A DNA stretch of 64,000 nt from Gammaproteobacteria bacterium (GCA_023266095.1 JAHFRV010000009.1:471-64470); one strand, 5' to 3'; counted from the stretch's first letter, positions 7,137-63,366 are shown. The notes: generated from the letters alone by a model not told the origin. Translations and numbers: made by a program.

Positions 7137-7895
7137 ATGGAGATACCACAGCTTGTCGCCCACCGCGGTTATCCGCGCCGCTACCCGGAGAACACGCTGG
7201 AGAGCATCAGCGCGGCCATCGCCGCGGGCGCCTGCTATGTTGAATTCGACGTGCAGATGACCGCCGACGGCGTACCGGTACTGCTCCACGACGAAAGCCT
7301 GATGCGCACCACCGGCACCCGCGGCCGCATCGTCAACACCAAACTGGAAAAACTGGCGGAGCTCTCCGCCAATGAACCGAAACGCTTCGGCACCCGCTAC
7401 CGCGGCCTCACCATCCCCACCTTGGCGGCGGCGGTGGAGCTGTTCCGCCAGCATCCCCGCGTCACACCCTTCGTGGAAATCAAGGAAGAAAGCCTGGAAG
7501 CCCATGGCCGCGAGAAAGTCGTCAAAACCATCCTCGCTATTCTTGCACCGCTCAAATCGCGCTTCGTAATCATCTCCTATGACACTCTGTCACTGCGCAC
7601 CGCCCGCGCCATGGGTGCCAAACGCATCGGCTGGGTGCTGCGGGCTTGGAATGAAGAATCGCGTGCCAAGGCCACCGAGCTGGTGCCGGATTACCTCATC
7701 TGCAATTACACCAAACTCCCCAAGAATGAGGCCGAGCCTTTATGGTTCGGTCCTTGGAAATGGATGTTCTACGAAGTCACCCATGTCCGCCTGGCCTTGC
7801 AATTGGCGCAACGGGGCGCAGCCTTGATCGAAACCATGGCCATCGGTGAAATGCTCAAAAACCCGCAACTCCGCAGCGGCGCATGTCTTGACTGA
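7137..7895 (+). CDS. Glycerophosphodiester phosphodiesterase (GDPD) family protein
   Basis: VAHRGYPRRYPENTLESISAAIAAGACYVEFDVQMTADGVPVLLHDESL is the canonical GDPD HR(G)...E-D...HD active-site region. Confidence 0.8.
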   Translation: MEIPQLVAHRGYPRRYPENTLESISAAIAAGACYVEFDVQMTADGVPVLLHDESLMRTTGTRGRIVNTKLEKLAELSANEPKRFGTRYRGLTIPTLAAAVELFRQHPRVTPFVEIKEESLEAHGREKVVKTILAILAPLKSRFVIISYDTLSLRTARAMGAKRIGWVLRAWNEESRAKATELVPDYLICNYTKLPKNEAEPLWFGPWKWMFYEVTHVRLALQLAQRGAALIETMAIGEMLKNPQLRSGACLD

Positions 7896-9063
7896 GCGTT
7901 ACGATCTGGCGGTCATCGGCGGCGGGATTCACGGCGCAGGGGTTGCACAGGCCGCCGCCGCTCATGGTTATTCGGTGTTGGTACTCGAACAAACCGCGTT
8001 GGCGGCGGGCACTTCCAGCCGTTCCAGCAAATTGATACATGGCGGCCTGCGTTATCTGGAGAGCGGCCATTTCAAGCTAGTCCGCGAATGCCTGCAAGAG
8101 CGAGCGCTGTTGCTGACGCTGGCCCCCGACCTGGTACGGATGCGGTCGTTTTATTTACCCCTGTACCGTCACACCCGCCGCAGTCCCTGGCAAATCCGTA
8201 TTGGCTTAAGCCTCTACACGCTCCTCGCCGGCTTGGCTAAGGACACGTTATTCCGCTCCGTGCCGCGACGGGAATGGGAGGGTCTCGATGGTTTGAATAC
8301 CGATGACTTGCGCGCCGTGTATTGTTACCCCGATGCCCAAACTGATGACGCCGCCCTCACCCACGCGGTGATGCGGTCGGCGTTGAGTTTAGGCGCGCGG
8401 CTCGAGGCCCCCGCCCGCATCCAACAGGCCGAATGCGGCGACGATGGCGTCACGCTGCATTATCACGACAGCCAGCCGCGGCAATGCCAGGTCCGGGTGC
8501 TGGTGAATGCCGCGGGTCCTTGGGCCAATGATGTACTGAGGCGAGTGCGTCCCTCGCCGCCTCATTGCACTGTGGATCTGGTACAAGGCACCCATATCCT
8601 GGTGCCCGGCCAGCTCCGGCGCGGCATTTATTACCTGGAAGCACCGCGCGACCGCCGCGCGGTGTTCGTGATGCCTTGGCGCGATGCCACGTTAGTCGGC
8701 ACCACTGAGACCGTGTATCGCGGCGACCCCGCGCAAGTGCGACCCCTGCCCGCCGAGATCGATTATCTCTGGGAGACTCTGGCCCATTACTTCCCGCAGC
8801 ACCGGCAAGATGAACGACAGCTGCTGGACAGCTTCGCCGGACTGCGGGTGTTGCCCGCCCGTCCCGGCGCGCCCTTCAGCCGTTCACGGGAAACCATCTT
8901 GCTGCCCGACCGGGAACACCGGCCGCGGGTACTGACGATTTACGGCGGCAAACTCACCGCCTATCGCGCCACCGCCGCCGCGGTGATGACGCGATTGCTA
9001 CCCTCACTACCGGACAGAACACCGATCGCCGACACCCGCAGCTTGCCCCTGCACCCTGCCTAA
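7888..9063 (+). CDS. FAD-dependent glycerol-3-phosphate dehydrogenase/oxidase-like oxidoreductase
   Basis: YDLAVIGGGIHGAGVAQAAAAHGYSVLVLEQ (GxGxxG FAD fold), then SSRSSKLIHGGLRYLE as in GlpD/GlpO. The start is uncertain (TTG at 7888 or upstream in ORF 7846..9063) and it overlaps the GDPD gene end. Confidence 0.65.
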   Translation: MTERYDLAVIGGGIHGAGVAQAAAAHGYSVLVLEQTALAAGTSSRSSKLIHGGLRYLESGHFKLVRECLQERALLLTLAPDLVRMRSFYLPLYRHTRRSPWQIRIGLSLYTLLAGLAKDTLFRSVPRREWEGLDGLNTDDLRAVYCYPDAQTDDAALTHAVMRSALSLGARLEAPARIQQAECGDDGVTLHYHDSQPRQCQVRVLVNAAGPWANDVLRRVRPSPPHCTVDLVQGTHILVPGQLRRGIYYLEAPRDRRAVFVMPWRDATLVGTTETVYRGDPAQVRPLPAEIDYLWETLAHYFPQHRQDERQLLDSFAGLRVLPARPGAPFSRSRETILLPDREHRPRVLTIYGGKLTAYRATAAAVMTRLLPSLPDRTPIADTRSLPLHPA

Positions 9064-9284
9064 TCGCCGTCCGCGCCCGGTTGGTTTAGCGGGCTCAAGC
9101 CGCTACTCAGGCATCACAGAGTAGACGAAACGCCTTACTTTGCGACTTCTGAGTAAACACGGTGATTTACCTGCCCCACCCTGTCCCGCTCGCTGCACAG
9201 GGAGCGGAAACGTAGCGGAAAGTGTAGCCCTATTTACTGACTTATGAGTAACATGGGCGGCTTCAGTCCCTACCAGAGAATGCC

Positions 9285-11258
9285 ATGAAAAGCCTGTGGA
9301 ACGATCACGACGCCGCGCAATTCACCGATGAACTGGGCCTGCGCGTCTACACCTCCCGCCTGCTGGGTCGCGACCCCTCGCTGGTGCTGCACGGCGGCGG
9401 CAACACTTCGGTGAAAATCACGCGGAAAAATATTCTGGGTGAGGAAGAAGAAATACTTTACGTCAAAGGCAGCGGCTGGGATCTCGAGACCATCGATCGC
9501 GCCGGCTTCGCGCCCGTGCGCATGAAGCATCTGCTGGCGCTCGCGCAACTCGAACGGCTGTCCGATCCCGAAATGGTCAACGAATTGCGCACCAACACCA
9601 TCGACGCCGCCGCGCCCACGCCTTCGGTGGAAGCGATACTGCACGCCGTGCTGCCGCACAAATACGTGGACCATACCCATTCCGATACCCTGGTTACTGT
9701 CACCAACACCGAACGCGGCCTGGAACGCATCAAAGAGATTTACGGCGATAGTGTGGTCATCATCCCTTACGTTATGCCCGGCTTCGACCTCGCGCGTGAC
9801 TGCGCGCTGCGTTTCGCCCGCGATACCGGCGCCAATACCATCGGCATGGTACTGCTCAATCACGGTATCTTCTCCTTCGGCGCCACGGCGCGCGAGTCGT
9901 ACGAACGCATGATCGCGCTGGTCGATCGCGCTGAACGTTACCTCCAAAATCAAAATGCCTGGACGTTTTCATTGCCGCCCGCAAAACCGGCGCCGCAATC
10001 ATTACACCGCGAGCTCGCGGCCCTGCGCGCGCAACTCTCCAAACAGGCCGGTACACCACTGATCGTGAGCTGGCAGGACGATGAAAAAAGCCGGGCCTTC
10101 GCCGCCCATCCCGAGGTCGCACGCCTCGCCCAGCAGGGACCGGCGACGCCCGATCACGTCATCCGCACCAAACGCCTGCCGCTGATCGGCCGCGACATCG
10201 ACGGCTACGTGAGCGCCTATCGCGATTATTTCAACACGCATGCACCGGCGGCGCGCGAACCCAAGACCCTACTCGATCCCACGCCACGGGTGATCCTCGA
10301 CCAGGAATGGGGCATGGCCGCCGTCGGCCACACCGCCAGGGACGCCGCCATCGTCCGTGACATCTACGACCACACCATCGACGTGATCCTGCGCGCCGAG
10401 GCGCTCGGCGGTTACCGCGCCCTCTCCGCCCGCGATTTGTTCGACATGGAATACTGGGATCTCGAACAAGCCAAACTGCGCAAGGGCGGCAAGCCGCCCA
10501 TGTTCACCGGCGAAGTCGCGCTGGTCACCGGCGCGGCTTCGGGCATCGGCAAAGCCTGCGTCGAATCGTTGCTCGCGCGCGGCGCGGCGGTAGTGGGCAT
10601 CGACATCGATCCCGCCATCACGGGCTTACACAACAAACCGACGTTTCGCGGCCTGATAGGCGACGTCACCGACGACACGCAACTCGCCGCCGCACTGGAA
10701 ACGACGGTACACGCTTACGGCGGACTCGACATGCTGATCCTCAATGCCGGGGTGTTCCCGCCCGGCCGCCGTATCGAGGCGCTCACCCTAGAGGAATGGC
10801 AGCGGGTGCTACGCATCAATCTCGACGCCAATCTGGTGCTGCTGCGCGAAGCCCATCCTTTATTGAAACAGGCGCCGCGCGGCGGCCGGGTGGTGGTGAT
10901 CGGTTCGAAGAACGTGCCGGCACCGGGGCCGGGCGCGGCGGCCTATTCGGCTTCCAAGGCCGCGCTCAATCAACTCGCGCGGGTCGCGGCCCTGGAATGG
11001 GGCGGCGACGGCATCCGCATCAACAGCCTGCACCCCAACGCGGTATTCGATACTGGCCTGTGGACCGACGAGGTATTGCGCGCGCGCGCCGCCCATTACG
11101 GGATGAGCGTCGAACACTACAAAACCAACAACGTGCTGAAAGTAGAAGTGCGCAGCCGCGACGTCGCCGAACTCGCGGCAGAAATGTGCGGCTCGCTGTT
11201 TGCCAAGACCACCGGCGCGCAGCTACCGGTAGACGGCGGTAATGACAGGGTGATTTGA
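9285..11258 (+). CDS. Bifunctional class II aldolase (rhamnulose-1-phosphate aldolase-like) / short-chain dehydrogenase
   Basis: 657 aa. The N-terminal half is a class II aldolase/adducin domain (LHGGGNTSVK...HTHSDTLVTV). The C-terminal half is an SDR (TGAASGIGKA Rossmann motif, NAGV, YSASKAAL catalytic YxxxK). Confidence 0.8.
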   Translation: MKSLWNDHDAAQFTDELGLRVYTSRLLGRDPSLVLHGGGNTSVKITRKNILGEEEEILYVKGSGWDLETIDRAGFAPVRMKHLLALAQLERLSDPEMVNELRTNTIDAAAPTPSVEAILHAVLPHKYVDHTHSDTLVTVTNTERGLERIKEIYGDSVVIIPYVMPGFDLARDCALRFARDTGANTIGMVLLNHGIFSFGATARESYERMIALVDRAERYLQNQNAWTFSLPPAKPAPQSLHRELAALRAQLSKQAGTPLIVSWQDDEKSRAFAAHPEVARLAQQGPATPDHVIRTKRLPLIGRDIDGYVSAYRDYFNTHAPAAREPKTLLDPTPRVILDQEWGMAAVGHTARDAAIVRDIYDHTIDVILRAEALGGYRALSARDLFDMEYWDLEQAKLRKGGKPPMFTGEVALVTGAASGIGKACVESLLARGAAVVGIDIDPAITGLHNKPTFRGLIGDVTDDTQLAAALETTVHAYGGLDMLILNAGVFPPGRRIEALTLEEWQRVLRINLDANLVLLREAHPLLKQAPRGGRVVVIGSKNVPAPGPGAAAYSASKAALNQLARVAALEWGGDGIRINSLHPNAVFDTGLWTDEVLRARAAHYGMSVEHYKTNNVLKVEVRSRDVAELAAEMCGSLFAKTTGAQLPVDGGNDRVI

Positions 11259-11283
11259 CCTGGCTTGACGTTGCCGAACGCTC

Positions 11284-11320
11284 AAAAAAATGGGGTACCC
11301 ATGAAGGTACCCCTTAATCA
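11284..11320. terminator. Rho-independent terminator hairpin, bidirectional; stronger for minus-strand transcripts
   Basis: Perfect 8-bp stem ggggtacc/ggtacccc (11292-11299 and 11306-11313) with a 6-nt loop. Flanked 5' by aaaaaaa, which is a U7 tail on the minus strand, and 3' by ttaat. Confidence 0.6.
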
Positions 11321-11534
11321 GGGAGAGGGACTAACGTGGCTCAACCAGACGGGGGTCGGGGTTAAACCACGTACATTATTTAGCACAGGACATGCCACAC
11401 TTTACTGTCTTTTAGAAAACAATAAGTTAAATTTTCATGTTGCGCATGCTACGTCGGAAAATGGCCGCCATCGCTCAAGAGTGACAAAACACCGCCACTA
11501 AATGGGGCACACTGGGAACACCCTGCGGAAAAAG

Positions 11535-12086
11535 TTACAAATCCAACCCTAATTGCCGATCGGAACCGTGATCGTAAATCAGACCATCGCCCACTCGACG
11601 CACAACCGCACTGATGTGATGGGGAACGCTGGTATTCACGTCCAGCACATGGGTGACGTGAACAGCCTGATGGGCAAGATAATCAGCGAGCAGCGAACGA
11701 TGGCAGTTTTGCGGCCATTTTTCCGCGCACATCATCGCGGTGGGCATCCGACCTGCGCGCTCCAGCAAGTCCTCCACCCCGGCGCGAAACGAGTTCGAGG
11801 TCATATGGTCGGCATAAGCGCGCATGCCCTGCGAGTGCAGCGCCACATGCGGTGAAATCACCTCCGCGTCGCTTTTACGCATGCCACCCAGGCTCGGACC
11901 GAGCCAAAGGTAATCAATGCCCATGCCCCCTAGTAAAGGGACTAGGGCGGTGCGGGAAAAGTGGGGATAGCGGCGGGACACGGGCTGGGCGCGCACATCG
12001 ACCAAGCAACGGATGCCGAAGGTATCGAGCATCGCCAAAAATTCCGCGGCGGTGCGGTCGCTGTGCCCTACCGAGTAGAGTTGCAT
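11535..12086 (-). CDS. DUF488 family protein
   Basis: MQLYSVGHSDRTAAEFLAMLDTFGIRCLVDVRAQPVSRRYPHF matches the DUF488 N-terminal signature (YTIGHS...LVDVR..P.SR). The start was chosen at the internal ATG of ORF 11535..12137. Confidence 0.7.
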   Translation of the reverse strand: MQLYSVGHSDRTAAEFLAMLDTFGIRCLVDVRAQPVSRRYPHFSRTALVPLLGGMGIDYLWLGPSLGGMRKSDAEVISPHVALHSQGMRAYADHMTSNSFRAGVEDLLERAGRMPTAMMCAEKWPQNCHRSLLADYLAHQAVHVTHVLDVNTSVPHHISAVVRRVGDGLIYDHGSDRQLGLDL

Positions 12087-37222: not shown

Positions 37223-37298
37223 TGGTGGGCCATGTAGGACTTGAACCTACAACCAACGGATTAAGAGTCCGCTGCTCTACCAATTGAGCTAATGGCCC
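37223..37298 (-). tRNA. tRNA-Lys (CTT)
   Basis: rc: GGGCCATTAGCTCAATTGGTAGAGCAGCGGACTCTTAATCCGTTGGTTGTAGGTTCAAGTCCTACATGGCCCACCA. Confidence 0.88.
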
Positions 37299-37315
37299 GC
37301 AACACAACTTGAAAG

Positions 37316-37392
37316 TGGGGTGGACGACGGGACTCGAACCCGCGACAACCGGAATCACAATCCGGGGCTCTACCAACTGAGCTACGCCCACC
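37316..37392 (-). tRNA. tRNA-His (GTG)
   Basis: rc: GGTGGGCGTAGCTCAGTTGGTAGAGCCCCGGATTGTGATTCCGGTTGTCGCGGGTTCGAGTCCCGTCGTCCACCCCA. Has the G-1 extra 5' nucleotide and ends CCACCCCA, typical of tRNA-His. Confidence 0.9.
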
Positions 37393-37438
37393 ATTAAACC
37401 CGTTCGCGAACAGCGCGCGCGCATCATATCACGAAGAT

Positions 37439-37515
37439 TGGCGCGCCCGGCAGGACTCGAACCTGCTACCCTCGGCTTAGAAGGCCGATGCTCTGTCCGG
37501 ATGAGCTACGGGCGC
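37439..37515 (-). tRNA. tRNA-Arg (TCT)
   Basis: rc: GCGCCCGTAGCTCATCCGGACAGAGCATCGGCCTTCTAAGCCGAGGGTAGCAGGTTCGAGTCCTGCCGGGCGCGCCA. Confidence 0.88.
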
Positions 37516-37679
37516 AGACATTGTGAACAGCCGCTTGCCCTTCCCTGCTGCTGCTTCACCGCTTGAACTCGAACTCCAATCACAATTTTGGCTGATCGGC
37601 GCCGCGTTCACACGTCAAATCCTTACACGACACCAGCGGCCTAGCATTGCGTGGTGGCCTTACGGGTACACCCATTAAG

Positions 37680-37756
37680 TGGTCGGGGTAGAGGGATTCG
37701 AACCCACGACTTCCTGCTCCCAAAGCAGGCGCGCTACCAGACTGCGCTATACCCCG
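37680..37756 (-). tRNA. tRNA-Pro (TGG)
   Basis: rc: CGGGGTATAGCGCAGTCTGGTAGCGCGCCTGCTTTGGGAGCAGGAAGTCGTGGGTTCGAATCCCTCTACCCCGACCA. Confidence 0.88.
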
Positions 37757-39066: not shown

Positions 39067-40182
39067 CTATTCCGCGCCCGGCGCGCGAGCGGGGATCACC
39101 GGCGTGCCCGAACGCACGTCCAGATTCTGCGCGCGGTGGCGCAGACAGTGATCCATCAAGACCAGCGCCAGCATGGCCTCGGCGATGGGTGTGGCGCGGA
39201 TACCGACGCAGGGATCATGACGGCCGGTGGTGATGACGTCGACCGGTTCACCGTGGATGTCGACGCTGCGGCCCGGCAGACGCAGGCTCGAGGTCGGCTT
39301 CAGCGCAAGACTGGCGAGGATGTCCTGCCCCGTCGAAATGCCGCCCAGTATCCCGCCCGCGTTATTGCTCAAAAAACCTTGCGGCGTGATCTCGTCGCGA
39401 TGTTGCGTGCCCTTCTGTCCGACACATGCGAAACCGGCACCGACCTCGACACCCTTCACGGCGTTGATGCACATCAACGCCTTGGCGATGTCGGCGTCGA
39501 GGCGATCGAACACCGGTTCGCCCCAGCCCGGCGGCACACCGGTGGCCACCACGTTGATGCGCGCGCCGATGGAATCGCCTTCCTTGCGCAAAGCATCCAT
39601 GTAGGCTTCAAGCTCCGTTATTTTGTTCGCATCAGGGCAAAAGAAGAAATTGTTGTTGACCTCTTCCCAATCGAAAGTCTGGTCATCGGTACGGATCGGT
39701 CCGAGCTGGGCCAGGTAACCGCGAATCTCCACCCCGTAGCGTTCACGCAGGTATTTTTTGGCGATGGCCCCCGCGGCCACCCGCAGCGCGGTCTCGCGCG
39801 CCGAGGAACGGCCGCCGCCCCGATAATCGCGGAAGCCGTATTTCTGTTGATAGGTATAGTCGGCATGGCCGGGACGAAATTGCTCGGCGATCTTGGAATA
39901 ATCCTTGGAACGCTGATCTTCGTTGTGAATCAGCAGACCGATGGGCGTGCCGGTAGTCTTGCCCTCGAACACCCCGGAGAGTATCTGCACCGCGTCGGGT
40001 TCGCGGCGCTGGGTGGTGTGGCGCGAGGTGCCGGGCTTGCGGCGGTCCAGATCATGCTGAATATCGGCGGCGGATAACACCATCCCCGGCGGACAACCAT
40101 CCACGATGGCGCCCAGCGCCGGGCCGTGGCTTTCGCCGAAAGTAGTGACAGTGAACAGGGTTCCGAAGGTGTTTCCAGACAT
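39067..40182 (-). CDS. aroC: Chorismate synthase
   Basis: [34 protein letters not shown]...[17 protein letters not shown] is the canonical AroC N-terminus. 371 aa. Confidence 0.95.
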
Positions 40183-40470: not shown

Positions 40471-41475
40471 TTAATTCCCCCCACCACTCGGCGGCGGGAA
40501 GGGCATGGTCGGCATGACGCCGAACATATTGTCCCAAGAATACGGACGGCCTGGAGCGTCTTCCTTGTTCCAGGTGCGGGTACCGGGTACCGTGTCATTC
40601 AAATTATCGTAGGACTGGTAGCCCATGCTGGTCTGGCCTTCCGCACCGGTATAGTACTGACCGAACCACGTCACTTGAGCATCACCACCCGCGGTAAATG
40701 CAGGGATAGTCGACGTACTGCCACTACCACCGGTCACGCCGCCACCCAGCCTGCCGGGATTGAGATCCCCGGCGCGACGCCGTCGATCGAAGCGCATAAC
40801 ATCGTTAGGCATATTCTCGACCGCCTTGAGGGGATCGTAAAACCGCAGATTGATACCCAATTGGCCGATGTCCCAGGCTACGCCGGTTTGATTGCCGGCG
40901 GCGTTTACATTCTGGGCAAACCAGAAGTCATTAGCCCATTGGACGCCCGGCAGATTGCTGTCATTGTGCTGTTTGATCTCCACCGTCCGGTTGGTGCTAT
41001 CGTCGGCCCAGCCGGTGTGTATCAGCGTCGTGAGATTGAACGGACCTTGGTTGACCAACGCCGCCCCATCAGTAATGGTTTGTTTAAGGGCTATGCCACT
41101 GACACTTCCCGCACTGGTTATTAAATTACTCTCTCCAGGAACAGTCGGTGTGCCGTTCACTGAATCGGCGCTGGTCCATCCCTGCCTGACAAAGCTTTCA
41201 CTGGAAAAAGACAAGGTGCTGGCGGTGCCTGTCGCGTTAGCATTGGTGATGACGCTTTGAATAAATTTCCCGTCGCTGGCGTTGATCTCCCGCTGCAGCA
41301 TACCGGGCGCTTGCAAGGGTGATGTACTACACGTCACGCCTGTCGTACATTGGGCTGTAATGGTGCCATTATTTACCGACCATTGATCAAATGGCATGGG
41401 CGCTGCGGTGAACACCGTCATCGGTGCGGCCGCAGTCATCGTGCCGAGCAATGTTACTACGAGACGTTTAGCCAT
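40471..41475 (-). CDS. Secreted protein of unrecognised family, paralog A
   Basis: Signal peptide MAKRLVVTLLGTMTAAAPMTVFTAA. Mature ~310 aa, Gly/Ser/Thr/Asn-rich, Cys pair (TAQCTTGVTC). It ends ...PFPPPSGGGN. Clearly paralogous to the adjacent gene (PFD(Q/G)WS(V/A)N(N/S)GTI, TGWA(D/A)D, QS(Y/L)DNLND(T/N)). The start was chosen within ORF 40471..41538. Confidence 0.6.
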   Translation of the reverse strand: MAKRLVVTLLGTMTAAAPMTVFTAAPMPFDQWSVNNGTITAQCTTGVTCSTSPLQAPGMLQREINASDGKFIQSVITNANATGTASTLSFSSESFVRQGWTSADSVNGTPTVPGESNLITSAGSVSGIALKQTITDGAALVNQGPFNLTTLIHTGWADDSTNRTVEIKQHNDSNLPGVQWANDFWFAQNVNAAGNQTGVAWDIGQLGINLRFYDPLKAVENMPNDVMRFDRRRRAGDLNPGRLGGGVTGGSGSTSTIPAFTAGGDAQVTWFGQYYTGAEGQTSMGYQSYDNLNDTVPGTRTWNKEDAPGRPYSWDNMFGVMPTMPFPPPSGGGN

Positions 41476-41546
41476 TGTCTGTCTCCCCAAGCTTGTTATC
41501 GCGCCGCGTGCTCGCAGCCACATTTTATTGATTAACACTAATCTTA

Positions 41547-41574
41547 TCTTAAGATTTAACTCTTAAGATTTAAC
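41547..41574. promoter_or_regulatory. Tandem 14-bp direct repeat (tcttaagatttaac x2) in the paralog B-A intergenic region
   Basis: Exact tandem duplication at 41547-60 and 41561-74. AT-rich, overlaps the stop codon of paralog B, and lies ~75 nt upstream of the paralog A start. Candidate operator/processing site. Confidence 0.3.
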
Positions 41575-42637
41575 CGCCACCACTGGTGTTTCCAGTGGGA
41601 ATAGCCGGCATGACCGGCGCTGGCCCAAAGGGATTTACCCACCAGGTAAAGGGACCGGGGGCATTAAATTCGAAATAGCGGCTAATGGGGGTGTTGTCGT
41701 TCAAGTTATCCAGCGATTGGAAACCTTGCGCAAGCCTACAACGCCCACGGGGGCGGTTTTCAATTTTACACTCACCGTCATTGCGCATCAGCTGGCCGCC
41801 CCACATGGTCGATACGGTGTCTCCCGCAGCCCACGTGATGGACTGGCCGTTTTTGAGGGCCGCGCTACCAGCGGCGGGAAGCATATTACCGCCCACTCGC
41901 CGAATGGCGACCGCCTGGCCGTCACGAAAAGTAGTACTCGTACCACCACCGCCTTCACCGCCACTCTCATCCGCCCCCACCGGCTGGACAAACAGCGTAT
42001 CGTAGTTCATGCGGTTGCCGATCTGGAGTCCGTTACTGTCATTATTACTCTGGATCGTCGTTTTGGCATCGTAGGTTTTACCCGTATTAGAGACCTCGCG
42101 TATCGTTTGCGTGATATCAACATTGGGCTGACCCGCGTCGGCCGCCCAGCCGGTTCTGATGACCGCAATATAATCGAAATTCTGAGTGGCATTGGACGTG
42201 ACATTTTGAAGTTTGATCGCTTGTTTACCGGCGATACCAAAGGCGGAAGCCGAATTCTGCTGCGAGCCCGGCGGCGGCGCCGAGGAACCCGTACCAGTCA
42301 CGCCAGCCGCCCTCACAAAACCTTCATCGTTAAATGTCAGACCGGAGAGGGGTGTACCGGTAGCCGTGGAGCCCGCAACGATGGTTTGAACATAGGTAAG
42401 CGCCCCAGGCGTGTTACCGGTGATAGACCGCTGTAAGAAACCCGGGGAAGAACCGACTATCTCACATCTGAAACCACTCGCACAGGTTGCGGCTATCGTG
42501 CCGCTGTTCGCCGACCAACCGTCGAAAGGAACGGGTGGCCCAGCGAATACGGAGAGGGGTGTCAGCGCTAATAAATACGCCACATTGTTCAGTATCCAAG
42601 CCGGAAGCTTATTATTTTCGCAGTTCATATTTGCCAC
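41570..42637 (-). CDS. Secreted protein of unrecognised family, paralog B
   Basis: N-terminal signal peptide (…AWILNNVAYLLALTPLSVFAGP), Cys pair (AATCASGFRC), Gly-rich stretches (ESGGEGGGGTS). It ends ...PTGNTSGGG. Same length (355 aa) and shared motifs with paralog A. Confidence 0.6.
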   Translation of the reverse strand: MANMNCENNKLPAWILNNVAYLLALTPLSVFAGPPVPFDGWSANSGTIAATCASGFRCEIVGSSPGFLQRSITGNTPGALTYVQTIVAGSTATGTPLSGLTFNDEGFVRAAGVTGTGSSAPPPGSQQNSASAFGIAGKQAIKLQNVTSNATQNFDYIAVIRTGWAADAGQPNVDITQTIREVSNTGKTYDAKTTIQSNNDSNGLQIGNRMNYDTLFVQPVGADESGGEGGGGTSTTFRDGQAVAIRRVGGNMLPAAGSAALKNGQSITWAAGDTVSTMWGGQLMRNDGECKIENRPRGRCRLAQGFQSLDNLNDNTPISRYFEFNAPGPFTWWVNPFGPAPVMPAIPTGNTSGGG

Positions 42638-42858
42638 CCGATTTATTTATCGTTAGGGTTCTTGACCACGTGCGCAGCTGCGGCTGCAAACCAGTTCAGT
42701 GACCACCCTTATACCCCACCTTCTCCACCCAACCTTCGCCCTTCCCTGGTATTGGCTGAAATGTCCCCCCGCCTTATAAATTTGTTTAGCGCAGCTAGGG
42801 CTAAGCCTCTTTCCTATTCAACACATTCCGGGCGAAGGAACGCAAGGCCTACGCAGCC

Positions 42859-44925
42859 TTAACTTACCACTTTGACGCGTTGCTTACGCAACCTTGCACC
42901 TATTGCCAGCATACCCAGCAGCATAGCCCAAGGCTCCAAGGCGCCACCACCGCCACCCGAGGTACTCGTCGATTCTTTCACATCGGGGGAATCGACAGCT
43001 TGGCCTGCTTCGACTACAGCAGGCTTAATAACCTCCTCACTCATTGGATCTAGGCCGGGGTTAACAAGGCTACCCCCGGTGTCACCACCGATACCCAGCC
43101 CCGGGCTGGCGACTCCCGTGCTGACAAAGACACGTTGTGCCGAACAATCAACGGCATCTGTAGCAAAGGGACTCATGTTGTTCAGTTTGTTCGGTGTGGC
43201 GGGAGCAGCAACGGAACCTAGATACTCCACCGCGCCGATGTCGCGCACCTCAAGGGCTACCGCGTTATCGAGTTGATCCTTACTATTAGCCGGGCTGGCG
43301 CAGACATGTCCACCCATCCATTTAGAACTCAATTTGACGCTCTGGTCATTATTGCCGGCGTTGATGGCCGGGCTGTTCGAGTTCAAGACAAGATGGGCAC
43401 GTCCCGGCGCGCTAAAATCCGCGACGTAACTACCCACACCCGGATCTCCCGTCAAGTCGGTGAAGCTATCCGTTTCGAGGGTGACCAGCAAAGGTTCACC
43501 ACCATGGGGAACCTCACTAAGCTGGGAACCCTCGGGCAATTCCGTTGGTATCTTCTCGCAAAGCGTCGTATCACCGATGATGTTGTTACCCGCCGAGACG
43601 ATGTAGACAGGGTTGACATGAAAGTAGGGGTAACCGGCGCAGTCCTGGGGCATGCCGGGAGGCGCAGTATTGCCGGCAAGAATACTGTTCTTGAGCAGGA
43701 TAGTGCCTTTTTGAGTCAGGATGCCGCCGCCGCCATAAGTGCTTATCCCCTCTTTTCCAATACCATCGTCACCCGCATGATTACCGATGATAGTGCTATT
43801 AATTATGATAATGACACCCTCACCCCACAGCTCGTTACCCTTATCCTGGTTCTTACCGAACGGCAGGGCGTCTCTCTCAGGGGACGGGCTGTTTTCCGCG
43901 TAAGACCCAATAGCGCCGGCCCATTTGGTTGCTGTGTTCTTATAAAAAGTACTGTTGATGATAGTGAGCTTGCCGCGATTGTTCTCGACGGCACCGCCGC
44001 TGACCGATTTATTTTCGGTGAAGGTACTATTGGTGATAATCGCTTCGCCAGCTAGGTTCTCCACGGCGCCACCATCGCCATCTTGCGTTACACAGGCGGG
44101 GCGAAGGCAGGTGGTATTGCCTTTGAAGGTGCTGCGGTCAATGATCATGCGGCCAGCCACGTTAATGATGGCACCGCCCAAGGCGCCCCCTTTTTCGTCA
44201 TTTTGGGTTAGCGTGTTACCTTCGAAGGTACTGTTGTAAACTTCCAGCTCCGCCAAGAACACATTATTGGCGTCGGGATCGTTCGTGCTGTTCATGATGG
44301 CGCCGCCTTCATCACCCCCGGCATTGTCTTTAAAGGCGCTGTCTCGAATGATGGTTATACCCTCATTAAGGATGGCACCCCCTCTATTACCGTGTTTGAA
44401 GCCCCACCTAGCGTAGCCGTTCTTCAGAGTGAGCCCCTCAAGCTGTAACTTGCCGCTGGGCAGCACGTGGAAAAAACGAAAATGGTTGGAAGTCTTATCG
44501 CCTCTCGGACCGTCACGGTTGATCTCAACCTTACCGGCTTCTCCCTTGATGGTAATATCGGAAGTTATGAGGGGGAGGCCATTGGGGCCATAGGGATATT
44601 CTTTCCAGCGCCTTATCGATCCATCAGGATCCGTAACTGTAATTATATCGTAGTATTCTGATTTAACCTTGGTCAGCGAGTAGACGCCCGCTTCGAGATT
44701 GATGATATCCGGCTCGGCAGTGGCATTGGCGTCCTTGATCGCTTGAATCAACGCCTCTGTATTGCCAGCCTTGACCGTATACTCCGCTGCCGATGCAGTT
44801 TGCTGTGGCGCGAAGATCAAGCCGGCTACACCAAGGAAGGGTAGAAAAACAAGCAACAGACGAGATAAATCACTGTGCTTGGAACTCATATCTCTTTTAA
44901 TTTTCATTGTTATGGTGCCACTCAT
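42859..44925 (-). CDS. Large secreted right-handed beta-helix protein with Pmp-type (GGA[ILV] / FxxN) repeats and a C-terminal PEP-CTERM/GlyGly-CTERM-like sorting tail
   Basis: Signal peptide (LSRLLLVFLPFLGVAGLIFAPQQTASA). Repeated GGAILNEG, GGAIMNST, GGALGGAIIN, GGAVENLAG plus NSTFEGN, STFKGN, NSTFTEN, NSTFYKN, NSTIIGN motifs, as in polymorphic-outer-membrane-protein beta-helix repeats. The extreme C-terminus is STSTSGGGGGALEPWAMLLGMLAIGARLRKQRVKVVS (Gly run, L-E-P, hydrophobic helix, basic cluster). Confidence 0.7.
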   Translation of the reverse strand: MSGTITMKIKRDMSSKHSDLSRLLLVFLPFLGVAGLIFAPQQTASAAEYTVKAGNTEALIQAIKDANATAEPDIINLEAGVYSLTKVKSEYYDIITVTDPDGSIRRWKEYPYGPNGLPLITSDITIKGEAGKVEINRDGPRGDKTSNHFRFFHVLPSGKLQLEGLTLKNGYARWGFKHGNRGGAILNEGITIIRDSAFKDNAGGDEGGAIMNSTNDPDANNVFLAELEVYNSTFEGNTLTQNDEKGGALGGAIINVAGRMIIDRSTFKGNTTCLRPACVTQDGDGGAVENLAGEAIITNSTFTENKSVSGGAVENNRGKLTIINSTFYKNTATKWAGAIGSYAENSPSPERDALPFGKNQDKGNELWGEGVIIIINSTIIGNHAGDDGIGKEGISTYGGGGILTQKGTILLKNSILAGNTAPPGMPQDCAGYPYFHVNPVYIVSAGNNIIGDTTLCEKIPTELPEGSQLSEVPHGGEPLLVTLETDSFTDLTGDPGVGSYVADFSAPGRAHLVLNSNSPAINAGNNDQSVKLSSKWMGGHVCASPANSKDQLDNAVALEVRDIGAVEYLGSVAAPATPNKLNNMSPFATDAVDCSAQRVFVSTGVASPGLGIGGDTGGSLVNPGLDPMSEEVIKPAVVEAGQAVDSPDVKESTSTSGGGGGALEPWAMLLGMLAIGARLRKQRVKVVS

Positions 44926-45804
44926 GGTGCCTCCACGGATCGTTCGTCATTATAAAAACGTTTTGATCACCTTTACTTATCGCATTTTCTAATCTTAAAA
45001 GCTAACTGGAGGAAGAACAGTACCGAGCAAGCCTCGCGGATGCGTAAAGCGGGATGCGTAAAAAAGATGATGCCATGCGAAAAATCATTATTGGCAGACA
45101 GGGACTGATCCCGATGTTCCGCCGCAGTGAAGCCGGATTTATGGCCTTTAACCGTGATTCCATGGCAAAAAGAGCGGGGATAGCCGCAACAGCCGCACAA
45201 GCCGAAGCCAATGGGATAAACGCCACGGACGCTGACATTAACTGCATCATTTTTCCCCCAACTCTTATAATTATCATTCATTGCGCTTGAGGCTGAGACG
45301 CGCATATAACCTGCATTAAACTGATTTGGAGTGCGCCTGTCAAGCTGTAGTGCTATCCCGGTAGCCCAACCCCGCTCCATCCGATTGATTACTTAAGCAC
45401 ACTCTGATCAGTTGCGCAGTTATGCGATACTGGCTGCGATCATTGTGACTGCACAAGCTATCTGGCGAAGAACTTTCAGCAACACTTAGTGAAATACACC
45501 ACACCGATCCACGCCAGGTCAATACGCCTTTGGCGGCACGGGGTTAAGGCCCTCGCGGGACACGAGTGTGACTCACCGTGATCATCGCGGAACTTGCACT
45601 GGCGATATCCTGCTGGTCCAGCGGCGATCTTGCAGTTGGCGCAAGTCTGCAAGGGTGGAAAGGCCGCGAGGCTGATGACATGAAGTGGGTAAATAGGCAG
45701 TAATCTAGACTGTAATTGATCAACTTCGCAATATCCTCCCGGATTTCAGGCCTATTTGCATCCAGGCGACATAGGGCGCGCGTAGATCAGAGGTTCCTTA
45801 ATAC

Positions 45805-48800
45805 ATGGCTTTACACGATTTTCACCCCGCCGTCGCCGCCTGGTTCACCCGGCACTTCGCGCAGCCCACCGAGGCTCAGGCCCAGGCTTGGCCCGCGATA
45901 CGCCGTCACCAACACACCTTGATTGCGGCGCCGACCGGATCTGGCAAGACACTGGCGGCCTTTCTCGCCGCGATCGACGAACTGGTGCGCGAAGGCCTTG
46001 TCACGTCCTTGCCCGATGAAACGCGTGTGTTGTACATTTCGCCGCTCAAAGCCCTCTCCAACGACATTCAGAAAAATCTCGCGCAGCCGCTGGCTGGCAT
46101 CCGCGACGAGCTGTTGATGCACCACGGCGCGGATGTCGACATCCGCGCCGTGGTGCGCACCGGCGATACACCGGCGGGCGATCGGGTGCGTATGCGCCGC
46201 CTAGCGCCGCACATCCTGGTAACCACGCCGGAGTCGCTATTCATTCTGCTGAGCTCGGACTCGGGCCGGCACATGCTGAAAACCGCGCGCAGTGTGATCG
46301 TCGATGAAATCCACGCGCTGGCCGGCAACAAACGCGGCGCGCATCTGAGCCTGTCGTTGGAACGCCTCGCCGCACTGTGTCAGGAACATCGAGGCCACCG
46401 GCCGACCCGCATCGGCCTGTCGGCGACACAAAAACCGATCAAAGACATGGCGCGGTTTCTGGTCGGTGCGGCCGGCGGCGAATGCACCATCATCGACACC
46501 GGCCACGTGCGTGCCCGCGATCTCGCCATCGAAGTGCCCGGCTCGCCGCTGCAAGCGGTGATGGGGACCGAAGTATGGGATGAAATCTACGACCGCCTCG
46601 AACAACTGGTCGCCGAACACCGCACGACCTTGATCTTCGTCAATACCCGCCGCCTCGCCGAACGCGTCGCGCGTCATCTCGCCGAACGCATCGGTGAGCA
46701 ATCGGTCACGGCCCACCACGGCAGCCTGTCTCGCGAACACCGCCTCGACGCCGAACAGCGTCTCAAGGGCGGCCGCCTGCGCGCGCTGGTCGCCACCGCC
46801 TCACTGGAATTGGGCATCGACATCGGCGAGGTCGATCTGGTCTGTCAACTCGGTTCGCCGCGGGCGATCTCGATCTTCCTGCAACGCGTCGGCCGCGCCG
46901 GTCACGCCGTGCATGCCACACCCAAAGGCCGTTTGTTTCCGCTGTCGCACGACGAACTGGTCGAGTGCACGGCGCTGCTCGACGCGGTGCGACGCGGCGA
47001 ACTCGATCGCATCCACATTCCCGACCATCCGCTCGATGTACTCGCGCAGCAGATCGTCGCCGAGGTGGCCAGTCGGGAATGGGACGAGCAAGCGCTGTTT
47101 GAGATTTTCCGCCGCGCCTGGCCTTACCGCGAACTCGCGCGCGATGATTACATCGCGGTGGTGCGCATGCTCGCCGACGGCTACACCACGCGCCGCGGTC
47201 GGCGCGGTGCTTATCTGCACCGCGACGCGGTCAACGGCCGCTTGCGCGCGCGGCGCGGCGCACGCCTGACCGTAATCACCAACGGCGGCGCCATTCCCGA
47301 TTTGTTCGATTACGACGTGATTCTGCAACCCGAGGGCTTATTCATCGGCAGCCTCAATGAAGACTTCGCTTTCGAGAGTCTGCCCGGCGACATCTTTCAA
47401 CTCGGCAACAATTCTTACCGCGTACTCAAAGTCGAGCAAGGTAAAGTTTACGCCGCCGACGCCCACGGTCAGCCGCCGACCATGCCGTTCTGGCTCGGCG
47501 AAGCGCCGGGTCGCAGCGACGAATTATCGCTGGCGGTGTCACGGCTGCGCGAACTCATCGCCGCCCGTTTGCAGGAAGGTACGGAGGCGGCGCTCGTCTG
47601 GTTGCGCGATATCCTGCACCTGCCACCCGCCGCCGCGCAGCAAATCGTCGATTATCTCGCCGCCGCGCAGGCGGCGCTCGGTGTGCTGCCTACGCAACAC
47701 ACCGTGGTGTTCGAGCGTTTCTTCGACGAGACCGGCGACATGCACTTCGTCATCCACGCGCCGTTTGGTTCGCGCATCAACCGCGCCTGGGGTCTCGCGC
47801 TGCGCAAACGTTTCTGCCGCAAGTTCAACTTTGAATTGCAGGCCGCGGCGATGGAAGACAGTATCGTATTATCGCTCGGGCCGACGCACAGCTTTCCGCT
47901 CGCGGAGGTGGCCAGTTATCTGAAATCGTCGAACGTGCGCGAGGTGTTGATCCAGGCTCTGCTCGACGCGCCGCTGTTCGAGACCCGCTGGCGCTGGAAC
48001 AGCAATATATCGCTGGCGGTGCCGCGCAATCGCAACGGCAAACGCATCCCCGCGCAGTGGCAACGTTCGGGCGCGCAGGATCTGGTCGCGGTGATTTTCC
48101 CTGATCAGCTCGCCTGTCTCGAAAATATCGCGGGTGATCGCGAGGTGCCCGACCACCCTCTCGTCAAACAAACCATTCACGATTGTTTGTACGAGGCGAT
48201 GGACATCGAAGGCCTCGAACACCTGTTGCGGCAGATCGAAGCGGGTGAAATCCATATCGCGCCACGCGACCTCGCCGCGCCGTCGCCGTTATCGCAGGCC
48301 ATCCTCAGCGCGCGACCCTACGCTTTTCTCGACGACGCGCCCGCCGAAGAACGGCGCACCCTCGCCGTGCAGCAACGCCGCTATCTCGACCCGCAGAGCG
48401 CGGCGGAACTGGGCCGTTTGAATCCCGAAGCCATCGCCCAAGTGCGCAGCGAGGCCTGGCCCGAGGCGCGCGACGCCGATGAATTACACGACGCGCTCAA
48501 CTTGTTCGGCTTTATCACCGAGACCGAAGGCCGGCGCGACAACCCCTATTGGCCGTCGTTATTGCAGCAACTCATCGAGCGGCGCCGCGCCACACTACTC
48601 CGCACACCGCACGGTGAAAATATCTGGGTGGCGACGGAACGGCTCGCCGAGCTGCTCCGCTTATTTCCCGCTGCGCCGCTCACGCCGCCGATTGCCCCGG
48701 TGATCGAACCCGCCGATAAAACCTGGACCGAAGCAGCTGCCTTGCGTGAAATCATGCGCAGCCGTCTCGAAGGCTTGGGGCCGGCAACAGCGACCCAGCT

Positions 48801-50136
48801 CGCCGCGCCACTGGGACTAGCGCTTGCGCAGATTCATTTCGCCGTCGCCGCGCTCGAACAGGAAGGCTACGTATTGCAAGGCAGTTTCACCGGCACCACT
48901 CAAGAAATCGAATGGTGCGAACGCGGACTGCTGGCGCGCATCCATCGCTACACCGTGCAGCAATTGCGCCGCGAGGTCGAGCCGGTGAGCCCCGCCGACT
49001 TCCTGCGTTTTCTGCTGCGCTGGCAACACCTCGGCGAGGCGCGCGGCGAAGGCAACGAGGCGCTGGCGGCGGTGCTGCTGCAATTGGAGGGTTACCCCAT
49101 CCCCGCCGCCGCCTGGGAAGCGGAAATCCTGCCCGCGCGCATCGAGATGTATCTCACCTATATGCTCGACGCTTTGTGCGGCGCGGGACGTTTTACCTGG
49201 CTGCGTTTGCAGCCGCCCAAAGACAAAGGCGTCGACACCCGCAAGGCCGCACCGGTGCGCATGACGCCCATCGCCTTATTGCCGCGTCAACACATCAGCT
49301 ATTGGCGTGACGTGGAAACCGATGCGGAACCGGCCGCGCTCTCGGCCACCGCGCAAAAAGTCGCCGACAGCTTGCAACAACACGGCGCTTCGTTTTTTAT
49401 CGATCTGGTACAGCACACCGGCTTGTTGCGCACCCAAGTGGAAGAGGCCCTCGGCGAACTGGCGGCCCGCGGCCGGGTCAGCGCCGACAGCTTCGCCGGG
49501 CTGCGTGCTTTAATCACTCCCGCGCAACGGCGCGCCGGCTTCGGCCGTCATGGCCGCCGCCGCGGCGCGGTCAGCGTCGATGAAGCCGGCCGCTGGGAAT
49601 TAGTGCGCCGCCCCGCGTCCGCGCCGGACAGCTCGCCGCGGCAACAAGCAGACCAACGCGTGGCGCACATCGCCCGCAGCTTGCTGCGCCGCTACGGCGT
49701 GGTGTTCCGCAAACTGCTGGAACGCGAGAGCAAACTGCCGAGCTGGCGCGAGTTGTTATACGTCTACCGCCGCATGGAGGCACGCGGTGAACTGCGCGGC
49801 GGCCGCTTCGTGCAAGGTTTTTCCGGCGAACAATTCGCCTTGCCCGAGGCGGTGGGCAGCCTGCGCGAGATCCGCAAACAGGCCGCGCGCGGCGAACTCA
49901 TCGCCATCAGCGCCGCCGACCCGCTCAACCTGGTGGGCATCCTCACCCCGGGCCGGCGCGTCCCCGCCCTCGCCGGCAATCGCATCCTGTTCCGCGACGG
50001 CGTACCGGTGGCGGCGCTCATCGCGGGTGAATTCGAGGCGTTGCAAGCATCGAGCGGCGAAGAGCTCGGACAGATGCGCGCACGTTTACTCGGCAAATCT
50101 TCCAACACAAAATCGGCGGCAAGAATCGCGCTGTGA
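45805..50136 (+). CDS. lhr: Lhr-like ATP-dependent DEAD/DEAH-box helicase (large helicase-related protein)
   Basis: 1443 aa. N-terminal helicase core ([24 protein letters not shown] box [25 protein letters not shown], motif [10 protein letters not shown]) followed by the long Lhr-specific C-terminal extension. Confidence 0.88.
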
Positions 50137-61894: not shown

Positions 61895-62656
61895 TCAAAG
61901 TCCGGCAAACCAATTATAGCCTTTGTCTTCCCAGTAGCCGCCCGGATACCTATTGGTGACGTAAATCGCCATGATGTGCTTGGGATTCTTGAAACCCAGC
62001 TTGGTCGGTATACGCAGTTTCATCGGAAAACCATACGAACGCGGCAGTATCTGGTCATCATAGCGCAGCGTCATTTGGGTCTGGGGATGCAACGCGGTGG
62101 CCATGTCGATACTGGTGTAGTAATCGTCCGCGCATTTAAAGCCGACATATTTTGCGCTCAAATCGGCGCCGACCCGTTCGAGAAAGGTCCGGAATGTGAC
62201 GCCGCTCCATTTGCCGATGGCACTCCAGCCTTCGACGCAAACGTGACGGGTGACTTGCGTGGTCTGCGGCAAAGCATTCAGCTCCCGCAGCGACCACGGC
62301 CGGCGGTCGCGAATCAAACCGCTGAGTTCGAGGCGGTAGGGTTCGGCCTCAACTACCGGCGCCTCGTCTTCATCGTAAAAAGCATTAAACGGAAACGGCC
62401 GGGTAATCGCGCTATCCGGATAGGTGGGCGCCAGTCGGTTCGGATCGAACAAAGCCGCCTGAACCCGATCGTTCCAGCGCGACATGCTCCACAGCGTCTT
62501 GCGCACCGTTTCTTGATTGGTGATATTGCAACCGGTAAGCAGACCGAGCGCGCCCACGCTCAGCGCTCCCTTCAGCAGTAGACGGCGTTCGAGAAATTGG
62601 CGCTCAGCCTTGCTGCACTCCACGGGGGCGGATTCGATGCCAGGCCGGCGTTTCAT
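61895..62656 (-). CDS. Sulfite-oxidase-family molybdopterin-binding oxidoreductase, Tat-secreted (YedY/MsrP-like small Mo enzyme)
   Basis: Twin-arginine signal ERRLLLKGALSVGALGLLTG. Moco-binding region HVCVEGWSAIGKWSGV typical of the sulfite oxidase fold. ~250 aa. The start is internal to ORF 61895..62725. Confidence 0.7.
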   Translation of the reverse strand: MKRRPGIESAPVECSKAERQFLERRLLLKGALSVGALGLLTGCNITNQETVRKTLWSMSRWNDRVQAALFDPNRLAPTYPDSAITRPFPFNAFYDEDEAPVVEAEPYRLELSGLIRDRRPWSLRELNALPQTTQVTRHVCVEGWSAIGKWSGVTFRTFLERVGADLSAKYVGFKCADDYYTSIDMATALHPQTQMTLRYDDQILPRSYGFPMKLRIPTKLGFKNPKHIMAIYVTNRYPGGYWEDKGYNWFAGL

Positions 62657-62658
62657 GA

Positions 62659-63366
62659 TCAGCTCCTCTTGCCGGGTTGCCGGACGCGGCCGGTCCACAT
62701 CGGAATAAATGTCCGCGGCACCCACATCACCATCACCACATGAATCACCACGAACGACACGATGCCCGTCATGGTAAAGAAATGCACCAGCCGCGCCCCT
62801 TCATAACCGCCCAGCAAGACACCCAGACTCTGTAATTGAACCGGCTTCCACATCACCAAACCCGACAGCACCACGAGGATGATCATCACGATGACGCTGA
62901 GATACGCCGTGCGTTGTACTGGATTATAGGTGCCGACCGCGTGACTCAACCGGCCAGAGGTAGTATTGGCGATTTCCCGCAACAGAGACTTCACGGTGAT
63001 GGGCAACAAATGCTGGCGGTAATGACCCGAAAAAATGCCATGCGCCAAATAAACCAGGCCATTGACGGCCAGCAGCCACATCGCGGCGAAATGCCACTGC
63101 AAGGCCCCCGCCAACCAGCCGCCCAAGGTCAGGTCATTCGGAAACGTGAAATTGAACAGCGGTGAGGCATTGTAGATCCGCCAGCCGCTGGCCACCATGA
63201 TCAGTATCGCCGCGACATTGACCCAATGGGTGATCCGTACCGTCAACGGATGCACGTTTATCAGTGTTGTATTTTCAGAAGACGGGGGTACAGGTAACGA
63301 ACCTGACATCATCGGTTCCTTCTGGCCTAAGCACGCCGCATTGCGTGTTGTTATGAGGAATGTCAA
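62659..63366 (-). CDS. Membrane b-type cytochrome subunit (cytochrome b561-like), partner of the Mo enzyme
   Basis: Polytopic (4-5 TM) with conserved His in TM helices (VRITHWVNVAAILIM, WHFAAMWLL, HFFTMTGIVSFVVIHVVM). Its stop lies 3 nt upstream of the Mo-enzyme start. The exact start (63366 or internal MMSGS) is uncertain. Confidence 0.6.
   Translation of the reverse strand: MTFLITTRNAACLGQKEPMMSGSLPVPPSSENTTLINVHPLTVRITHWVNVAAILIMVASGWRIYNASPLFNFTFPNDLTLGGWLAGALQWHFAAMWLLAVNGLVYLAHGIFSGHYRQHLLPITVKSLLREIANTTSGRLSHAVGTYNPVQRTAYLSVIVMIILVVLSGLVMWKPVQLQSLGVLLGGYEGARLVHFFTMTGIVSFVVIHVVMVMWVPRTFIPMWTGRVRQPGKRS

Follow-up and report, generated by a model that had tools for sequence, protein, structure and literature searches.

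Proteins of Vibrio cholerae that carry GlyGly-CTERM tails are cut by rhombosortase, receive a glycerophosphoethanolamine-containing moiety on the new C-terminus, and are delivered to the cell surface by way of type II secretion (the T2SS) (PMC6219818). The GlyGly-CTERM domain has been defined, and the system is mainly gammaproteobacterial (PMC3237569). For DUF1302/DUF1329/RND genes, a role in exporting a component of the envelope has been proposed (10.1101/2020.07.04.188060). In this study, we analyzed a 64,000-nucleotide stretch of DNA from a Gammaproteobacteria bacterium (GCA_023266095.1 JAHFRV010000009.1:471-64470; the whole stretch is called the window), in which three consecutive minus-strand genes, from upstream to downstream C, B, and A, lie between aroC and lhr. 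An earlier reading made from the DNA alone (the sequence-only reading) had described these three open reading frames (ORFs), and all of them were present (Table 1). Taken as a whole, the locus encodes a sorted surface protein and, next to it, a conserved accessory pair that is novel. The main new result, a feature missed in the sequence-only reading, is that B and A form a fixed two-part unit, which is either split into two genes or fused into one.

The arrangement of B-type and A-type genes was determined by typing with local hidden Markov models (HMMs). Adjacent pairs had a fixed order, with the B-type gene upstream and the A-type gene downstream. This order held in the window and in L001, L002, L006, and L030, and it was also kept by the far more divergent pairs found in L003, L007, and L008 (L numbers denote loci and P numbers denote proteins). 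About a quarter of the listed relatives were proteins of 650-760 aa with two copies. In the closest fused relatives (P0143-P0151), the N-terminal half scored as B-type and the C-terminal half as A-type. The second half of the fusions kept the PxxFxxWS motif and the Cys pair, had no signal peptide, and was preceded by a linker of roughly 45-60 residues. These B-A gene fusions ("Rosetta stone" proteins) suggest that B and A act together, and the simplest arrangement would be a pseudo-symmetric heterodimer. More distant relatives were single-copy, and their HMM scores were closer to A-type. The metagenome-assembled genome (MAG) Biocath_Gamma_008 contained a C-B-A triad with an adjacent fused copy (L001) and a second B-A pair on another contig (L007). 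The fused two-copy member of L001 (4847-6898, minus strand, 683 aa) lies divergently beside the triad, whose C orthologue is located at 7749-9803 on the plus strand, and is followed by a 1116-aa Cadherin_5/Big_9 protein.

The sequence-only reading had regarded the three genes as a cell-surface or secreted module. The outcomes named there as refuting this reading were not observed: A and B matched no well-characterised family, and their homologues lay next to a protein with a sorting signal in several other genomes, in three different contexts. A C-type HMM detected C orthologues directly upstream of B-A in the window, L001, L002, L006, and L030. In L011/L012, a C-type protein with 37% identity, carrying Cadherin/Big_9 domains and a GlyGly-type tail, was encoded 10 bp upstream of a fused B-A gene. 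The triad was flanked by aroC-MFS-tig in four loci (the window, L001, L002, and L006). In L030, the triad was not beside aroC and was flanked by an IS630-type transposase gene (DDE_3 plus HTH; L030 12104-13098), which hints that the C-B-A triad can move as a unit, and the flanks in L011 were CCP_MauG and GSDH. These differences in flanking genes among the C-(B,A) loci suggest that the linkage is more than inherited synteny. The idea of a cell-surface module of three was thus upheld in part: the exported appearance of the proteins and the recurrent adjacency of C support it, whereas the link is clade-specific and C-type genes are absent from most family loci.

The neighbourhoods of single-copy members were also inspected. 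Singletons were located directly upstream of a TP_0789-like (LolA-like) gene in L013-L017, L027, and L031-L032. In L013-L017, the LolA-like gene was followed by DUF1302, an MMPL/RND transporter, an unknown gene of ~300 aa, and a gene for a tetratricopeptide repeat (TPR) protein of ~915 aa; in L027, unannotated ORFs matching in length followed the LolA-like gene, and L031 showed the LolA-like gene only. This singleton-LolA-like-DUF1302-MMPL set is a recurring, uncharacterised envelope-export cluster. A second singleton branch was found behind two Lcl_C (DUF1566) domain proteins (L009 41-9428 and L023 7635-10921), and the L009 singleton was followed by two TonB-dependent-receptor-like genes and ExbB/ExbD. 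In L019 (2573-3499 and 519-2174, both on the minus strand), a fused family member was near two distant C-like Pmp proteins; this locus also encoded a multihaem cytochrome of 308 aa, which matched an MtrC/MtrF domain weakly, and, downstream, a 791-aa protein with a GlyGly-type tail. What the A/B family neighbourhoods have in common is a connection to the cell envelope and surface rather than a single constant partner.

The sequence-only reading could not assign A and B to any family, and the database searches agreed with this view. The curated libraries Pfam-A 2025, NCBIfam 20.0, and PADLOC 2.0 were scanned. There were 0 matches in Pfam and NCBIfam for A, B, and 82 diverse relatives, and the PADLOC scan of A and B gave no match. 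A YccF model hit on the GTG-extended ORF of A was rejected as noise (E 0.041; 14.3 bits versus a cut-off of 140). Sequence searches of the PDB with the A/B family profiles A1 and A2 returned nothing meaningful. A kinship between the A/B family and its TP_0789-like (LolA-like, PF17131) neighbours was likewise discarded, the hhalign probability being 0.3% (A2 versus five proteins). A word-indexed search of 5.8 billion proteins with the A/B queries yielded 12 and 10 relatives, all unnamed and without a Pfam domain, and an exhaustive profile search of 1.84 billion cluster representatives yielded 443 with E<=1e-3, of which 115 had E<=1e-30. The narrower alignment A3 gave 9 loci in a metagenome scan. 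The lengths of the relatives were bimodal (~300-370 aa and 650-760 aa). Most relatives were without a name, and those with one were called "hypothetical protein"; the named sources were environmental Gammaproteobacteria/Pseudomonadota MAGs, including Biocath_Gamma_008 and Chromatiaceae labels.

A and B had been described as two paralogs of ~355 aa. Their paralogy was supported by BLASTP (29% identity over the full length, E 3e-27), whereas the equal length was a product of mechanical ORF calling; the starts in Table 1 were set by database homologues (for A, the 100% identical P0013). Several of the proposed shared features were recovered: PFDxWSxNxGTI, TGWAxD, and QSxDNLND occurred once each in A and in B, the N-terminal Cys pair was present in both, and the G/S/T/N fraction was 0.38 in each protein. 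The occurrences of HNDSN/SNNDSN, also proposed as a shared motif, were at non-homologous positions in the A-B pairwise alignment, suggesting that this resemblance is coincidental. W41, C52, and C58 were invariant or nearly so in the A/B family alignments, as were G163 (TGWA) and, in the close relatives, D310/N311/D314 (QSxDN).

The presence of signal peptides on A, B, and C, judged by inspection of the translations alone, was consistent with the sequence-only reading: an h-region was followed by VFA/G in B, FTA/A in A, and ASA/A in C. In the 82 aligned A/B relatives, the conserved mature motif started right after the predicted cleavage site. All aligned family members had a signal-peptide-like N-terminus, then PPxxFDxWS, and then the nearly invariant Cys pair, and the family also shared a C-terminal PFxW...FGxxPxxP. 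The SGGG(N) ends noticed earlier were present here (A ...PPPSGGGN, B ...TGNTSGGG) but were not conserved in orthologues, of which the 98%-identical P0001 ended in SGND and others in GGD, GKD, or NGD. Variable in close orthologues and devoid of a hydrophobic segment or basic cluster, these ends do not support the suggestion of a processing related to that of the C tail.

Three further observations concern these proteins. A second Cys pair (GECKIENRPRGRC) was found in a long loop of the close-clade B-type proteins (B residues 287-297; window 41768-41800) and was missing from the A-type proteins. Many B-A relatives had Gly/Trp-rich C-terminal tails (GGGGGGWGW, GGGGGGRGW), and their long loops contained inserts such as GGGGRGWSGGG (P0009-P0012, P0146, P0150, P0155, and P0158; L003 9227-10276; L007 11011-12084). 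A role in haem binding or electron transfer, an idea prompted by the biocathode MAGs, was rejected, with zero CxxCH in A, B, or C.

For protein C, the chlamydial-Pmp-like repeats of the sequence-only reading were recognized by Pfam Chlam_PMP (PF02415), a marginal pass at 21.8 bits versus a cut-off of 20.6, and the motifs GG[AG][ILVM] and FxxN were counted 8 and 7 times. The database relatives of C numbered 146, mostly with PF02415/PF13229. The close orthologues P0024-P0029 had 51-63% identity and were encoded on contigs equal in length to those with A/B relatives, and the N-terminal region MSGTIT... was kept in orthologues. The Pfam scan found neither PF03797 nor another barrel domain in C, whose C-terminus is the sorting tail. 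The match to NCBIfam NF041518 was below threshold (16.2 bits, cut-off 25, E 0.0095), and rhombotarget A (TIGR04212) gave a local match to residues 179-347 only, at 13.8 bits versus a full-length cut-off of 295.

The C-terminal sorting signal proposed for C was also recovered, as a Gly-rich motif, a 16-residue hydrophobic stretch (ALEPWAMLLGMLAIGA), and a basic RLRKQR. This tripartite tail was kept in all seven C orthologues (including P0024, P0025, and P0027-P0030). In a tail-only NCBIfam scan, C's own tail scored 14.4 against a cut-off of 20 for MYXO-CTERM and 10.4 against 19.7 for the MprA GlyGly tail, with no TIGR03501 match; the tail of orthologue P0025 passed both TIGR03501 (15.8/15.5) and MYXO-CTERM (20.6/20). 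On the basis of the tripartite tail in orthologues and of P0025 passing TIGR03501, the tail of C may be read as GlyGly-CTERM-like (rhombosortase type), not PEP-CTERM (exosortase type). A PEP-CTERM reading of "LEPW" in C was rejected, with LEP limited to C and P0024 and the other orthologues showing LGP, WGL, WGP, or FGV, and the tail scan gave no match of the PEP-CTERM model to the C tails at E<=10. Taken by itself, C is unremarkable and belongs to a known kind, being one more Pmp-like surface protein whose tail is of the rhombosortase type.

An AlphaFold2 (AF2) model of B was built from the 82-sequence alignment and superseded a 21-sequence model (predicted local distance difference test [pLDDT] 66). 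The new model was all antiparallel (pLDDT 83, predicted template modeling score 0.80), with two short N-terminal hairpins and ~13 long antiparallel meander strands. Between the strands, short turns alternated with long loops of low confidence, which were G/S/T/N-rich and variable, and the conserved C-terminal motif and the last ~30 residues were non-strand. A Foldseek search of the PDB with the first, lower-confidence B model, a check proposed in the sequence-only reading, returned nothing at E<=0.001 (best E 0.12). The sheet may be read as gently curved and half-barrel-like, its open, closed, or flattened form being judged from the match lists and residue patterns alone. In the broad alignment, the nearly invariant residues were W, C, C, G, Q, G, Q, G, Q, F, G, Q, W, and P, with no His/Ser/Asp-type catalytic set among the conserved residues, suggesting that a binding or scaffolding role is likelier than an enzymatic role for A/B.

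The explanation we favor, to which we give somewhat less than an even chance, is that C is a rhombosortase-sorted surface beta-helix and that B:A is a soluble or peripheral, non-enzymatic two-part module working with C in this clade. C would be Sec-exported, and its Pmp repeats would form a right-handed beta-helix. By analogy with VesB of Vibrio cholerae, the intramembrane protease rhombosortase would cut C at the Gly motif and add a glycerophosphoethanolamine-containing moiety, and C would then cross the outer membrane and stay on the cell surface. B and A would be Sec-exported to a location beyond the inner membrane as disulfide-containing, non-enzymatic all-beta halves of one unit, each half a ~13-stranded antiparallel meander sheet with an inner face of hydrophobic residues and conserved glutamines. 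The halves would pair as a pseudo-symmetric B:A heterodimer, corresponding to the single fused B-A chain of other genomes, and B:A would serve as the binding or scaffold partner of the surface beta-helix C or of its lipid-modified end. A role of A/B as an enzyme or as an integral outer-membrane pore is less likely.

Several points weigh against this explanation. The A:B and B:A:C contacts are inferences, the AF2 models covering monomer B. C's own tail is under every NCBIfam sorting-domain cut-off, and no rhombosortase was found in an NCBIfam scan of 10 window ORFs (four of them of 200-221 aa). To some extent, the recurrence of C-B-A simply reflects synteny between related genomes. In addition, C-type genes were absent, according to the C-type HMM, from L003, L007-L010, L013-L018, and L020 and from all singleton loci, and several of the fused members are isolated within housekeeping genes (L018, L020). 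C is missing from most family loci, indicating that the A/B family does not need C.

Among the alternatives, an integral membrane location of B and A appears improbable. They would then be outer-membrane beta-barrels, either as barrels of their own or as half-barrels closing into 24-28 strands, and would act as a pore or as a translocator/anchor for C, following type V/two-partner logic. The best-aligned Foldseek targets, none of them significant, were large barrels of 22-36 strands, the only structural neighbours were barrel walls, FhaC/CdiB/TamA included, and the short turns alternating with long variable loops agree with such a fold; moreover, many members are stand-alone genes, like porin genes, and chlamydial Pmp proteins are autotransporters, whereas C lacks a barrel domain of its own. 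The C-termini can be cited on both sides. A final F, W, or Y was present in 42 of 164 relatives, many of them ending in ...FGTAPTF, but a C-terminal aromatic beta-signal was not general in this set (P 55, F 29, D 22, L 15, W 10), and the C-terminus consists of a conserved, Pro-containing non-strand motif, its Pro almost invariant, followed by variable tails. The residue pattern of the strands is also at odds with a barrel wall. A continuous lipid-facing hydrophobic belt was not found in a per-column analysis, which showed 2-3 conserved hydrophobic positions per strand; the near-invariant Gln 69, 139, 177, and 282, like position 241, which is mostly polar, fall on this hydrophobic register, an invariant Gln in mid-face is unfavourable toward lipid, and charged residues occupy the other face. 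Such a pattern is more in keeping with the core or a cavity of a protein than with a belt turned toward lipid. Furthermore, A/B showed no POTRA domain and no match to a Pfam outer-membrane protein family, and the GlyGly-CTERM proteins investigated to date depend on the T2SS rather than on a dedicated barrel (PMC6219818).

A reading that we take more seriously, while still holding it to be unlikely, is that B:A is not specific to C, that the adjacency is one-clade synteny, and that the family acts as a carrier, cargo, or accessory of LolA-like/DUF1302/MMPL (RND) export. The absence of C from most family loci agrees with it, as do the singletons directly upstream of TP_0789-like genes with DUF1302 and MMPL/RND in L013-L015 and L016-L017, the TP_0789-like gene at the edge of L019, and the proposal that DUF1302/DUF1329/RND genes are envelope-component exporters (10.1101/2020.07.04.188060). 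However, the LolA-like association was limited to distant singletons and was seen for no B-A pair or fusion examined (L003, L007, L008, L018, L020). The same His_Phos_1 gene lies upstream in L016, L017, and L032, so some of the LolA-like loci are not independent. The family is also unrelated to the TP_0789-like proteins by the hhalign comparison above, and the C-(B,A) adjacency persists in three flanking contexts, down to 37% identity of C and once with a 10-bp gap. Very doubtful, in our estimate, is an abundant structural coat, in which B/A would form an S-layer-like or granule-envelope lattice and C would be one of several anchors or adhesins. Such a coat would be compatible with the non-enzymatic, G/S/T/N-rich, exported character of A/B, with the Gly/Trp-rich tails and inserts (GGGGGGWGW) of the relatives, with the several paralogous modules in the single genome Biocath_Gamma_008 (the L001 pair plus fusion and the L007 pair), and with the frequent adhesin-like neighbours (Cadherin/Big_9, Lcl_C, DUF7948), several of which have GlyGly-type tails.

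A bolder version of the partnership between B:A and C can be formulated, which we regard as a long shot. B:A might consist of two complementary half-barrel-like sheets that close on a hydrophobic or lipid-modified cargo and might escort or dock the glycerophospholipid-tagged C-terminus of C, either during its passage to the outer membrane or once there; in other lineages, single-copy relatives might serve the cargo of LolA-like/DUF1302/MMPL export systems. If true, this would provide a step that is still missing from the handling of lipid-anchored surface proteins by Gram-negative bacteria. In a variant, the two sheets would assemble into a heteromeric barrel in the outer membrane, which would be a translocon of a new kind for beta-helix proteins.

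The coordinates of the locus are listed in Table 1. The short gap between B and A is compatible with their co-transcription, and in L030, the stop-to-stop reading frames of B and A abut (9888-10913 and 10910-11983). In the C-B spacer, a terminator-like site was not found on the minus (coding) strand, and promoter-like sites were no more numerous than expected from shuffling. Scans of the locus for Rfam families, tRNAs, and repeats gave nothing relevant beyond DNA-level echoes of the C repeats. The G+C content of genes A, B, and C was 0.53-0.56, compared with 0.625 for aroC and 0.647 for lhr, and that of the 879-nt spacer between C and lhr was 0.50. The low G+C content of the region 40471-45804 could reflect amino-acid composition or foreign origin.

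Table 1. Coordinates of the features of the C-B-A locus, counted from the first nucleotide of the window
Feature	Position	Strand	Description
aroC	39067-40182		Flank of the three-gene cluster
lhr	45805-50136		Flank of the three-gene cluster
ORFs as called	40471-41538, 41570-42637, 42859-44925	-	
Gene C	42859-44925	-	688 aa; exported Pmp-repeat beta-helix protein with C-terminal sorting tail; P0023 identical
C signal peptide, predicted	aa 1-46, 44788-44925	-	...TASA/AEYTV, by inspection
C beta-helix repeat region	~aa 170-420, 43666-44418	-	GGA[ILV] and (N)STFxxN repeats
C choice-of-anchor-Q-like segment	aa 513-568, 43222-43389	-	NCBIfam NF041518, sub-threshold
C sorting tail	aa 656-688, 42862-42960	-	SGGGGG / ALEPWAMLLGMLAIGA / RLRKQRVKVVS
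C-B spacer	42629-42858	-	230 nt
Gene B	41570-42628	-	352 aa; exported all-beta protein, B-type, upstream partner; start ATG 42628 (MNCENNK...)
B signal peptide, predicted	aa 1-29, 42542-42628	-	...SVFA/GPPVPFDGWS
B-A spacer	41476-41569	-	94 nt (31 nt with GTG start at 41538)
Gene A	40471-41475	-	334 aa; exported all-beta protein, A-type, downstream partner; start ATG 41475
A signal peptide, predicted	aa 1-24, 41404-41475	-	...VFTA/APMPFDQWS

Elsewhere in the window, four tRNA genes (Lys-CTT, His-GTG, Arg-TCT, Pro-TGG; 37223-37756, minus strand) lie between a GGDEF gene and the MFS gene, and the interval of the syntenic L001 that matches this tRNA cluster carries an annotated glyoxalase gene. 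At 61895-63366 (minus strand), the end of a b-type cytochrome gene is overlapped by an MsrP/SorA-like molybdoenzyme gene, which scored well under the NCBIfam cut-offs; this MsrPQ-like pair is unrelated to the A/B/C cluster.

The A/B family is sizeable (~440 clusters at 50% identity). Neither Pfam nor NCBIfam contains it, and it has no solved structural relative. Defining it would place several hundred "hypothetical proteins" in a named family and would also point to a specific candidate accessory factor for surface proteins that are sorted. What is gained at once is annotation and a clearly framed experiment, not a worked-out mechanism.

We compared the locus with systems that have been described. 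The open beta-sheet carriers and adhesins, such as LolA/TP_0789-like proteins, the JlpA "half-barrel" of Campylobacter, and the lipovitellin sheet, differ from A/B, which have no lipobox and no sequence or profile kinship to them, and the two-part B-A architecture has no counterpart there. With type Vb two-partner secretion and autotransporters, the locus shares a beta-helix surface protein, C, encoded beside all-beta proteins, A/B; however, A/B lack POTRA domains, a general beta-signal, and a membrane-like hydrophobic belt, and C has an inner-membrane sorting tail typical of T2SS-dependent surface proteins. C resembles the chlamydial Pmps and the PF02415 and PF13229 proteins in its GGA[ILV] and FxxN repeats, but unlike the chlamydial Pmps proper, it has no autotransporter beta-domain. 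Rhombotarget A and choice-of-anchor Q proteins show weak local likeness to C, which is a member of neither group. To our knowledge, no described rhombotarget has been reported with a conserved accessory gene pair. The locus can finally be set beside the GlyGly-CTERM/rhombosortase substrates (TIGR03501), such as VesB of Vibrio cholerae and ExeM of Shewanella. C differs from these in its own sub-threshold tail and in its passenger, which is a Pmp-like beta-helix and not a protease or nuclease, and the likeness lies in the gammaproteobacterial host and in the tail of orthologue P0025, which passes TIGR03501.

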